From positions 1 through 19,479 of the forward strand of contig JAZDNN010000005.1 of assembly GCA_043799675.1 (NCBI GenBank): a DNA stretch of 19,479 nt, written 5' to 3'. This document shows, piece after piece, positions 11,596 through 13,562 of the stretch (position 1 is the first letter of the stretch; each line of letters starts with the position of its first letter). The notes below the pieces were generated by a model. The model was given only the letters and a program-made list of their open reading frames with translations. It was not told where the DNA came from and did no database searches. Made by a program: the position numbers and the translations under genes. Source of the stretch: Candidatus Aenigmatarchaeota archaeon. Its GTDB lineage: Archaea > Aenigmatarchaeota > Aenigmatarchaeia > Aenigmatarchaeales > JACQIB01.

Positions 11596-12129
11596 TTGAA
11601 GGACATAAGGGTAACGCCGATAAGGAACGGAACGGTCATTGACCACCTGCCGGCCGGAAGCGCGCTGTACGTCCTACGAATTCTCGGATACTATAGAAAC
11701 GACAATCCGATGAGCAAGACAACGTCCGTCCTCATGCATGCACCGAGCAGGAAAACCGTCTGGAAGGACCTCGTAAAAGTGGAGGACCTCGAGCTGGTTG
11801 AAAAGGAACGCCAGAAGATAGCGCTCGTCGCGTGGACATACAGGCCAAGACAGATGCCGACGGTGAACATAATAAGGAACTACACGGTTGCCGAAAAGAC
11901 CATACTGGAAGTGGCGGAACGCTACGGGGGACTGGTCTGCTGCCAGAACGGGCTGGAAGAAGGGGGAAAAAGCGGCTGCATCAGCAACAACGAAAGATGG
12001 ATGGAGGGCACCAATCTGGAACTGCGCAACGACAGGTTCTTCTGCTACTACTGCGGCCGCGAACAGGAACCGGAAAGACTGCGTGAGAACCTGATTAGGA
12101 GCCCTGCCGCCGGCAGGAAGGTCTGTTAG
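11596..12129 (+). CDS. pyrI: Aspartate carbamoyltransferase regulatory chain
   Basis: VTPIRNGTVIDHLPAG, KDLVKVE and TVNIIRNYTVAEK motifs; zinc ligands C..N....CISN and CYYC. TTG start after GAGGG. Confidence 0.88.
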   Translation: MKDIRVTPIRNGTVIDHLPAGSALYVLRILGYYRNDNPMSKTTSVLMHAPSRKTVWKDLVKVEDLELVEKERQKIALVAWTYRPRQMPTVNIIRNYTVAEKTILEVAERYGGLVCCQNGLEEGGKSGCISNNERWMEGTNLELRNDRFFCYYCGREQEPERLRENLIRSPAAGRKVC

Positions 12130-12134
12130 AAACC

Positions 12135-12148
12135 TGGTGGGCTCGCTG
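12135..12148 (-). repeat. 14-bp direct repeat of the tRNA-Pro 3' end (CAGCGAGCCCACCA)
   Basis: TGGTGGGCTCGCTG at 12135-12148 is identical to 12260-12273. Confidence 0.9.
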
Positions 12149-12259
12149 CCCCTAGGGAACCTAGGTTCCAGGTGGACTACTGTCCACCGGACGGTGGAAG
12201 GTAAACTTCCACCTGTCCCTTAAGGGATTATTCCTCCTAAAATGGCTGCGGCTATTTCA
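12147..12259. repeat. Palindromic intergenic repeat, copy 1 (64-bp core plus 49-bp insertion)
   Basis: Aligns with 12694-12757 at 59/64 positions (manual count) once the insertion is removed. Confidence 0.85.
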
Positions 12260-12276
12260 TGGTGGGCTCGCTGTGA

Positions 12277-12330
12277 TACTCATAGCACCGCCGCGCTGGC
12301 GGCAAGAGCGCTTTTGGCACTCCGTGCTCA
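12277..12330 (-). other. 54-nt tRNA intron at position 59/60 (T loop)
   Basis: BHB motif: central helix TTCA/TGAG, bulges AA|T and TA|T, outer helix is the T stem. Confidence 0.85.
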
Positions 12331-12355
12331 TTTGAACACAGGCCTCAAGGTCCCG

Positions 12356-12389
12356 CTAAGGCACAGCCGACCACGGGTCGGCCAAGAGC
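12356..12389 (-). other. 34-nt tRNA intron at position 33/34 (anticodon loop)
   Basis: BHB motif: central helix GAGG/CCTT, bulges TT|G and AG|C, outer helix TCC/GGG. Internal hairpin GCCGACC-CGT-GGTCGGC. Confidence 0.8.
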
Positions 12390-12446
12390 AACCTCGGATC
12401 CTACCAAGCTAGACTACGAGCCCAAAATAGAACGTGTCCGACTTCT

Positions 12447-12466
12447 TAAATGGCTGCGCTATTTCA
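12447..12466. repeat. Partial third copy of the repeat (TAAATGGCTGCGCTATTTCA)
   Basis: Matches the right end of copies 1 and 2 with small indels. Overlaps the stop codon of the 67-aa ORF and a TTTAAG TATA-like box about 25 nt upstream of the tRNA. Confidence 0.7.
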
Positions 12467-12662
12467 CCCTGAACTTCGCATGCCAGAGTACGGTCACGCC
12501 AAGCACTATCACGATACCGACCATCAGGATGCTCGGACTTGCCGGCATCGCAACCGCAGCGGCGGTCGGACCGCCGGTCCCGATAGCAGACAAAAGATAT
12601 ACCGCGGCAAGCACCAGGGCCACCGCGACCAGGACGGATGCCGTTCCACTGACCGTTTCCAT
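12459..12662 (-). CDS. Small two-TM membrane protein (67 aa)
   Basis: Two hydrophobic helices and a basic C-terminus; TTTAAAAA about 23 nt upstream of the ATG. Confidence 0.65.
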   Translation of the reverse strand: METVSGTASVLVAVALVLAAVYLLSAIGTGGPTAAAVAMPASPSILMVGIVIVLGVTVLWHAKFRVK

Positions 12663-12693: not shown

Positions 12694-12757
12694 TGCCCCT
12701 AGGGAACCTAGGTTCCCTTCTGGGTTCATTCCTCCTAAATTGGCTGCGGCTATTTCA
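12694..12757. repeat. Palindromic intergenic repeat, copy 2 (64 bp)
   Basis: Contains the perfect 18-bp palindrome AGGGAACCTAGGTTCCCT (12701-12718) overlapping CCCTAGGG. Confidence 0.85.
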
Positions 12758-12764
12758 GAAACCG

Positions 12765-13562
12765 TTACACGCCGACCTCTATGACTGCGCCGATGGACAC
12801 GGCCGCGACGGCAATGGCCATCAAGAACAGGCTGTCCCTCAGAAGGAGATTCAGCTCGGGGGAGCCCCATTTCTCGCGGGCCATTCCGATGGACAGGATT
12901 CCGCCGGCTATCCCGGCCAAGAAGTAGGCGACCAGCTCCGCTATCGCATGGGGAAGTATTCCGCCGGTGGTGAGGAGCAACTGCTGGTACATGCCGGAGC
13001 GGGCGAAGTTGGCGAAATAAATCGCGAGTATGGACGCGTTCCAGCTCATGATGAACACGGCACCGGTCCCGAAGATGAACGACAGGAGGAAAGCGAAAGA
13101 CATCACCTTCACGTTGTTCATCAGGACGACCTCGAGCAGTCCCGGATGTACTGCCGAGCCGCTGGCGAGCGACTGCACCGCATTTATGTCCTCCATCTGG
13201 GGGGCAAACACCGCATCGACAAAGTTCGCCGGGGCAATGATTGCCACGAGGAAGATTGCCAGGAAGCTGCCGAGGAACAGGAGGCTGAAAAGAAGCAATG
13301 TTTCCCTGTGCCTGAGGAAGAACCCTGCGGTCATCTTCTTCTCGGCGCATTCGTCGACCTCCTCCTCGTCCACCTCGAATATCCTGTAAATCAGCGGGGC
13401 CATGCCGACGGCAACGAGCAAAGGTGTGATTATTCCCGCGTACTTCGGGAAGACGAAATAGGAAGTGAAGATCGCGGCGGCGGTGACTATCGCGCTGACC
13501 AGAAGCATCTCAAGCGGCCTGTTCTCTATGCTCTTCTCGGGAAACAGGGACTCAAGCACCAT
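12765..13562 (-). CDS. Stage II sporulation protein M / DUF95-family membrane protein
   Basis: Polytopic; NNVKV, WNASILA, GILPHAIAELVAYFLAG and terminal AVIEV motifs. Confidence 0.85.
   Translation of the reverse strand: MVLESLFPEKSIENRPLEMLLVSAIVTAAAIFTSYFVFPKYAGIITPLLVAVGMAPLIYRIFEVDEEEVDECAEKKMTAGFFLRHRETLLLFSLLFLGSFLAIFLVAIIAPANFVDAVFAPQMEDINAVQSLASGSAVHPGLLEVVLMNNVKVMSFAFLLSFIFGTGAVFIMSWNASILAIYFANFARSGMYQQLLLTTGGILPHAIAELVAYFLAGIAGGILSIGMAREKWGSPELNLLLRDSLFLMAIAVAAVSIGAVIEVGV

Follow-up and report, generated by a model that had tools for sequence, protein, structure and literature searches.

Why does the 3' end of a tRNA-Pro gene stand a second time, without its gene, a short distance behind the intact gene, and what is the DNA that separates the two copies? 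Direct repeats of tRNA 3' ends are the classical signature of site-specific integration. To our knowledge, hardly any of the mobile and repetitive DNA in DPANN archaea has been charted, and such DNA is believed to have been lost from their genomes. The locus analyzed here belongs to a DPANN-type archaeon whose assembly (hereafter G000) comprises 748,753 bases in 45 contigs with ~54% G+C and is 83.41% complete. The window, i.e., the whole stretch of DNA that was analyzed (19,479 nt), is the entire contig C11 of this assembly and contains the archaeal genes for PCNA, a PcrB-type GGGP synthase, PyrI and a TrmI/GCD14-like methyltransferase. The features around the tRNA gene are listed in Table 1.

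Table 1. Features of the tRNA-Pro locus in the window and the evidence on which each is based
Feature	Positions	Strand	Evidence and remarks
pyrI-like gene	11596..12129	+	PF01948, E = 7e-21; convergent with tRNA-Pro
Distal, orphan copy of the tRNA tail (core probably 12 nt, 12135-12146)	12135..12148	-	Exact match
Element copy B, long form, probably 113 nt, starting directly after CCA	12147..12259	-	blastn and nhmmer, alignment, fold
49-nt two-hairpin block nested in copy B	12167..12215	-	Alignment columns 62-110, hairpins in fold
Proximal copy of the 14-mer (tRNA positions 63-76)	12260..12273	-	Exact match and cloverleaf position
tRNA-Pro(CGG) gene, CCA encoded, 164 nt	12260..12423	-	ARAGORN on coordinate-joined exons
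Exons of tRNA-Pro	12423-12390, 12355-12330, 12275-12260	-	
Anticodon-loop intron of tRNA-Pro, ~34 nt	12389-12356	-	Boundary ambiguous by 1 nt
T-loop intron of tRNA-Pro, 54 nt	12329-12276	-	Bulge-helix-bulge, 4/4 central pairs, 5-bp outer helix
Partial copy of the element 5' module, directly upstream of tRNA-Pro	12440..12463	-	Agrees with copy B in 20/23 aligned columns
Small hydrophobic ORF, 67 aa, between copy A and tRNA-Pro	12459..12662	-	Translation
Element copy A, short form, 64 nt	12694..12757	-	Family alignment; without flanking duplication
SpoIIM-like membrane protein gene, ancestral upstream neighbor of tRNA-Pro(CGG)	12765..13562	-	PF01944

In the raw window, ARAGORN reported no tRNA and Rfam no family, because the tRNA-Pro gene carries two introns. 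When these were cut out by coordinates, ARAGORN recognized a tRNA-Pro (cgg) of 76 nt with an encoded CCA. Introns are present in nearly all tRNA genes of G000. The T-loop intron of tRNA-Pro is a member of a family with 76–94% identity that is found at this T-loop position in at least six further tRNA genes (C16:19071-19148, C13:24594-24656, C38:5330-5408, C12:2141-2176, C16:11656-11721 and C6:2309-2360); judged by eye, ~19 of the 39 tRNA candidates of G000 have a T-loop intron. All candidates that were kept encode CCA, which the finder demands; CCA is also encoded by the tRNA-Pro genes of relatives. In the candidates, the distance between a TATA-like box and tRNA position 1 is near-constant at ~27–30 nt, which suggests that tRNA leaders in G000 are very short or absent; the genome encodes the RNase P protein subunit Pop5. 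In a same-family genome (L213; G002:C4, ~407890-407980), a tRNA-Pro(UGG) gene shares a 16-nt tail with the tRNA-Pro of the window; it is convergent to a SpoIIM-like gene, and its CCA end lies a few bases past the stop codon of that gene.

The last 14 nt of the tRNA gene, CAGCGAGCCCACCA, comprise the end of the T stem, the 3' acceptor strand, A73 and CCA, and recur exactly on the same strand. The second copy is separated by 5 nt from the stop codon with which the convergent pyrI-like gene ends. With up to one mismatch allowed, the window contained two matches compared with 0.01 expected, and two or more matches were found in 0/200 dinucleotide shuffles. The DNA between the tail copies is highly structured (128 nt, –58.8 kcal/mol, z = –6.3), and 0/200 shuffles folded as well. 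This insert consists of one complete repeat unit, from the left end to the right end of its family, and of nothing else. The earlier description of the locus, made from sequence only (hereafter the sequence-only reading), was thus right that the tail recurs exactly and that a hairpin-rich repeat alone lies between the copies. It had taken the element as 111 bp and the duplication as 14 bp; the duplication is present, but its outer two bases (CA) also terminate copy A, which adjoins no tRNA, and therefore the duplicated target is probably 12 nt (tRNA positions 65–76) and the element 113 nt. A comparison of the two ends of the 113-nt insert found only TG in common and no terminal inverted repeats. 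As a separate candidate, a 3'-terminal intron was rejected: removal of 125 nt gave at most 2/4 central pairs in any bulge-helix-bulge register, compared with 4/4 for the T-loop intron used as a control.

We determined the distribution of the repeat using blastn and an nhmmer profile and recovered from G000 10 full-length copies of the short form, 3 of the long form, 2 with internal deletions and 1 partial 5' piece; there are accordingly ~15 dispersed non-coding copies on 9 contigs of the 0.75-Mb genome. The short form is ~60 nt, and the long form of 113 nt corresponds to the short form with a 49-nt two-hairpin block nested in the 5' arm of its palindrome. This block, whose ends form an 8-nt inverted repeat, distinguishes the three long-form copies (copy B of the window, one copy on C3 and a degenerate copy on C4) from the short form, which lacks it. 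The block may represent an even smaller, separate element, and the family searches found no solo copy of it. Each block (window 12167-12215; C3; C4:19495-19575) contains two similar hairpins. The core hairpin of the family, consisting of 7 bp plus 3 bp, is paired in 98.3% of 120 cells; in two related copies, both partners of two pairs have changed, and 5/12 copies contain G.U pairs, which can form only on the element strand. The family alignments display no terminal inverted repeats at the element ends.

The family was absent from 40 relatives searched and from 370 other genomes of the phylum, where the sole match was 18 nt long and at chance level; this absence indicates that the family is lineage-specific, young and expanding. 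Three true family matches were obtained among 11 stretches from a metagenome collection, and none was obtained from phage, plasmid and viral-contig collections. In the literature searched, we found no description of this hairpin family or of recurrent tRNA-tail duplications in DPANN archaea. On these comparisons, the insert is a new, lineage-specific repeat.

Copies of the family occupy tiny intergenic spacers, usually behind a same-strand gene. For example, the right end of the element directly adjoins the stop codons of convergent genes encoding arginyl-tRNA synthetase and the thermosome, and its left end contains the stop codons of RNase III-like and dCTP-deaminase-like genes. A duplicated tRNA tail accompanies one copy, and two others flank tRNA-Tyr; the remaining copies have protein genes on both sides. 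The proposal of a tiny non-autonomous, tRNA-targeting element therefore survives in part: the element is repeated and bracketed by an apparent target duplication, but it is not specific to tRNA genes. At C29:9263-9460, the element and a ~27-nt spacer form a tandem array with a period of 83–84 nt and ~2.3 units, the first unit being more diverged.

Relatives were used to determine the ancestral state of the locus. In four order-level relatives (G010, G017, G026 and G028), tRNA-Pro(CGG) lies directly behind the SpoIIM-like gene on the same strand, and the downstream DNA is ordinary, containing neither the element nor a tail copy; tail copies were likewise seen at none (0/5) of five other tRNA-Pro-like genes of relatives. 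The shared synteny argues that the tRNA gene's position is old and that copies A and B, on these sequence comparisons, are additions of the G000 lineage. The same synteny ruled out that copy A, the small ORF, the tRNA, copy B and the tail had moved together as a 623-bp block flanked by a GGTTTC duplication (12758-12764/12128-12134). Synteny of the pyrI-like gene was uninformative, with a match in only 1/40 relatives. Copy A is located between the stop codon of the SpoIIM-like gene and the promoter of the small ORF. This ORF matched no family in a Pfam search, and homology to a small ORF behind the SpoIIM-like gene of another genome (G003) was not shown (BLASTP E = 2.4).

Empty-site alleles, which the sequence-only reading had proposed to look for, were not seen among the metagenome-run contigs of relatives. 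A 3210-nt contig from run X2 matches the tRNA only (12260-12419) and continues into unlike DNA; it may come from a more distant relative whose site is empty. The junction between tRNA and element at 12259/12260 is spanned by contigs of relatives with ~90–97% identity, which stem from three independent metagenome runs. One of these contigs, from run X2 (window 12213-12277), joins the 5' end of the element to a tRNA-Pro tail whose T-arm is intron-less, so that the junction exists beside an intron-less version of the gene or beside another tRNA-Pro.

These contigs bear on the possibility that a chimeric join during metagenome assembly produced the distal tail and its junction. In each metagenome run, contigs of relatives account for only 0.05–0.11 of the stretch, and none of these contigs covers 12135-12153 or joins across the element; moreover, the assembly has 45 contigs. 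An artifact is nonetheless highly improbable: usual assembly k-mers exceed the 14-nt repeat in length, three runs confirmed the proximal junction, the same architecture occurs on four other contigs, and the flank past the orphan tail continues into an intact pyrI-like gene.

We then considered whether the repeat is the scar of site-specific integration, namely, attL/attR of a decayed integrase island or a casposon at the tRNA-Pro 3' end. The direct repeat of the tRNA 3' end is present, and the casposon of Aciduliprofundum boonei targets tRNA-Pro with a 15-bp duplication (PMC5137440). The casposon duplication, however, overlaps the tRNA by 5 bp only (PMC5137440), whereas the duplication described here lies wholly inside the tRNA. 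No leftover cargo accompanies the insert, and the island scar that had been suggested earlier is unlikely because the insert is one whole repeat unit. The flanking repeats also differ among family copies, which a fixed attP core could not produce, and phage, plasmid and viral collections gave no match.

The absence of integrase, transposase and terminal inverted repeats noted in the sequence-only reading extends to the whole assembly for the families searched. Cas1 (PF01867) gave 0 matches in G000 (83.41% complete), compared with matches in 7/14 genomes for the positive control, and tyrosine recombinase (PF00589) gave 0 matches in the incomplete G000, compared with 14/14 genomes for its control. 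There were 0 matches to the Y1 (HUH) transposase (PF01797) in G000, and DDE transposase (DDE_Tnp_1) and TnpB had no match in the 83%-complete assembly. One reverse transcriptase was found (RVT_1 match, C16:60554-61198). With neither terminal inverted repeats nor Cas1 or tyrosine recombinase found in G000, the suggested link to casposons or integrases lost its footing, and an integration scar is very unlikely.

To examine whether other tRNA genes carry the same arrangement, we used a tRNA finder based on acceptor pairing, NCCA and the T-loop motif, which yielded 39 filtered candidates. The tail of the tRNA itself was copied exactly within 200 nt downstream over at least 8 nt in 6/39 and over at least 9 nt in 4/39 candidates. 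When each tail was compared with the downstream region of another tRNA, the corresponding counts were 12/1460 and 3/1460, and when it was compared with its own upstream region, they were 0/39 and 0/39. The copies were 14, 12, 9, 9, 8 and 8 nt long. A genome-wide local-repeat scan added a fifth clear case on C20 (11 nt, 139-nt insert). Overall, the last 9–14 bases are repeated 40–139 nt downstream in 5 of ~40 tRNA genes, four of them around unrelated inserts, and other tRNAs thus do display this arrangement. Hairpins, one or two per insert, are formed by the DNA inserted at C16 (40 nt), C43 (52 nt) and C4 (53 nt). Among five same-family genomes, a 9-nt tail copy was found at 1/34 tRNA candidates. 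A T-loop insertion is present in 5/5 tRNAs with tail copies, and the conserved intron family in 4/5.

Several other patterns were observed beside these tail copies. That the inserts behind the other tRNAs form a repeat family was rejected, as no further copy exists in G000. A scan of genome contigs for doubled tails (two 11-mers, 25–55 nt apart) returned at least 119 stretches; ARAGORN found no tRNA ending at the tail in the 60 that were checked, which were tandem repeats, mostly bacterial. For example, loci L089-L168, from many genomes, mostly of Actinomycetota and other bacteria, contain ~15–25-nt tandem repeats with the 11-mer TCGGCGCACCA and are unrelated to tRNA genes. In G000, promoter-proximal units at C37:150-400 and C22:3300-3400 (both minus strand) start, ~10 nt downstream of a TATA-like box, with a 12-nt motif that ends in GCCA and precedes CCGGC, and the motif appears again 52–75 nt further; these units look like tails without a tRNA and match no tRNA tail among the listed candidates. 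At C23:10042-10070 and C38:6437-6465, a conserved trailer stands behind each of two tRNA genes that share their acceptor end. The trailer contains an inverted tail copy, in which 7 nt are complementary to the last tRNA bases including CCA, so that the tail can pair with the trailer.

These observations can also be read at the RNA level. The hairpins could serve as a terminator, a stabilizer or a small RNA, and the second ACCA tail as a decoy, as a substrate of a CCA- or tRNA-binding enzyme or as an alternative 3' end; a read-through RNA ending in the second ACCA is possible from the layout of the locus. The conservation of the hairpin (98.3% of cells, two double-sided pair changes and strand-specific G.U pairs), the usual position of the copies behind a same-strand gene, the tail copies at five tRNAs, mostly after one or two hairpins, and the tRNA-type TATA-like box in the element are consistent with such a function. 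Nevertheless, we consider it doubtful. The tails vary in length (9–14 nt) and distance (40–139 nt), the insert offers no partner strand for the tail, and the compensatory changes occur in two related copies and may represent a single event. Furthermore, tail copies are rare in relatives (0/9 genes for tRNA-Pro and 1/34 tRNAs in the same-family genomes), and therefore the feature is not conserved.

For 14 full copies (12 in G000 and 2 metagenomic), we compared the left flank with the right flank by local alignment, with the maximum of 172 cross-controls as the threshold. Flanking direct repeats exceeded all 172 cross-controls in 5/14 full copies, with lengths of 14, 26, 29 (twice) and 35 nt, and flanking duplications are thus not confined to the copy in the window. 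The 14-nt repeat is that of copy B. The 26-nt repeat belongs to a metagenomic copy (L019) and includes the last 12 nt of the upstream gene and the first 14 nt of the element itself; the two 29-nt repeats belong to copies in the C29 tandem array; and the 35-nt repeat, which is imperfect, belongs to a copy beside tRNA-Tyr and includes the first 6 nt of the tRNA together with its promoter. Each flanking duplication contains the end of the adjacent gene, and the repeats of the five positive copies differ in sequence from each other. No flanking duplication was found in 9/14 full copies. These duplications are too long and too variable for a classical transposase.

The 5' module of the element resembles the tRNA promoters of G000, and this resemblance raises the question of a local origin. 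Under such an origin, a tandem duplicate of the tRNA-Pro unit would have had its body replaced by, or decayed into, hairpins, leaving the promoter module and the last 12–14 nt, and the family would comprise tRNA-gene-derived, SINE-like descendants. Copy B opens after CCA with a module that is matched by the partial 5' module upstream of tRNA-Pro (20/23 columns; 0/2000 shuffles reached its score), and it ends with the tail of tRNA-Pro itself. Both the TATA-like box of tRNA-Pro and the stop codon of the small ORF fall within the partial module. By eye, the element's own TATA-like box agrees with the tRNA-Tyr promoter at 11/12 positions; at both tRNA-Pro and tRNA-Tyr the box precedes tRNA position 1 by 27 nt, and in the long form the same spacing separates the box from the start of the nested block.

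Nevertheless, a local origin is unlikely. The core scores 21 against mature tRNA-Pro (p = 0.005), yet six other pre-tRNAs outscore the precursor of tRNA-Pro itself, which ranks 7th of 39. Other copies have the same left and right ends and no tail, which an element with defined ends explains more easily, and partial 5' modules occur elsewhere too (L020). The narrower proposal that the core derives from the anticodon arm of tRNA-Pro was rejected, as other tRNAs score equally or higher despite the p value of 0.005.

Taken together, we favor, with moderate confidence, an insertion into the last 12 bp of tRNA-Pro(CGG), with a target duplication that kept the gene intact. A copy of the lineage-specific, non-coding hairpin repeat would have entered these 12 bp via a staggered break or a template switch. 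Repair of the break would then have copied the 12 bp, CCA included, to both sides of the insert; the gene-proximal copy would keep the tRNA whole, and the distal copy would be left as an orphan tail without a gene. The agent might be an enzyme encoded in the unassembled 17% of G000 or in another genome, or the insert might have arisen by repair-templated copying from another element copy. We infer an insertion rather than a deletion, a break-and-fill-in and an orphan tail without function. Break-repair copying (template switching) or a target-primed process would fit better than cut-and-paste transposition because of the variable duplication lengths, the partial 5' copies, the internally deleted copies and the unrelated hairpin inserts at other tails.

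Some observations count against an insertion of this kind. The nine copies without a duplication and the range of lengths from 12/14 to 35 bp are unlike the output of one transposase, and the L019 duplication, which takes in the first 14 nt of the element, is a poor fit to a simple target duplication. The partial 5' module upstream of tRNA-Pro also fits a local origin. The other four tRNA inserts are unique sequences, so the tail-copy process may not be a property of the hairpin element.

A broader proposal, which we regard as rather improbable, is that short hairpin DNA is inserted at exact 3' gene ends by an undescribed route for which tRNA CCA ends are hot spots. The gene end would be regenerated by variable 9–35-bp duplications, orphan tails would be left behind, and the repeat family would be the most successful passenger of the route. 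The element would then be a promoter-bearing unit without terminal inverted repeats or transposase that spreads either by target-primed reverse transcription, as an archaeal analogue of SINEs using the single reverse transcriptase of G000, or by repair-templated copying, and the long form next to tRNA-Pro could yield a tRNA-sized RNA ending in the acceptor tail of the tRNA.

A young repeat family is now defined in a DPANN genome, and the hallmarks of known transposon-derived repeats are missing from it. The tRNA gene ends of G000 repeatedly gain short hairpin inserts, and the gene is kept intact through duplication of its tail. This recurrent gene-end duplication around short hairpin inserts is the part that deserves further attention. 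An enzymatic or RNA-mediated process, if that is what it is, would give minimal genomes a new way to gain sequence and would also supply promoter-carrying modules. If, instead, only a repair scar is involved, orphan tRNA tails of 9–14 nt beside intron-rich tRNA genes need not mark integrated islands. Standard tRNA finders miss both intron-rich tRNA genes and tail scars.

Finally, we compared the hairpin family with known systems. MITEs and REP-like elements are short, non-coding, multi-copy, intergenic, hairpin-forming and lineage-specific, and some are flanked by a duplicated target. The hairpin family is likewise short, non-coding, multi-copy, intergenic, lineage-specific and partly flanked by duplications, and like REP elements it has a conserved extragenic palindrome. 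It differs in having no terminal inverted repeats, in its duplications of 0 or 12–35 bp, which are not short and fixed, and in its tRNA-type TATA-like box, and the partner DDE, Y1/RAYT and TnpB genes were not found. In Pyrobaculum calidifontis, a MITE-like C/D-box sRNA element is described as having conserved flanking inverted repeats and C and D boxes and as lying 322 nt from genes on average (PMC6009581). The hairpin family has no inverted termini, and its copies are wedged against stop codons and tRNA ends. By eye on the alignment, it also lacks C/D boxes (the left end reads TGAWAT, and no CTGA lies near the right end), and Rfam gave no match.

The casposon of A. boonei at tRNA-Pro is large, has terminal inverted repeats and encodes Cas1 (PMC5137440). 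It resembles the case described here in using the tRNA-Pro 3' end region as a target and in the size of the duplication (15 bp compared with 12–14 bp), whereas the hairpin element is 113 nt long, has no inverted termini, occurs where Cas1 was not found and has its duplication wholly inside the tRNA. Islands and proviruses integrated at tRNA genes display a displaced tRNA 3' fragment (attR) and a fixed attP core. The locus shares with them an intact tRNA gene whose 3' end is directly repeated downstream; it differs in that no integrase was found, there is no cargo and the repeats vary between family copies, and the last of these differences argues that the repeats derive from the targets rather than from a fixed attP core.

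Eukaryotic SINEs are non-autonomous, tRNA-promoter-bearing retroposons with variable target duplications. The hairpin family differs from them in that it has no A-rich or defined 3' tail, its core is no closer to tRNA-Pro than to other tRNAs and an archaeal TATA box, which would be located upstream of the transcript, would be left out of any copy. It shares with SINEs its non-autonomous nature, its variable duplications, its tRNA-like promoter module and, in the same genome, a single reverse transcriptase gene.
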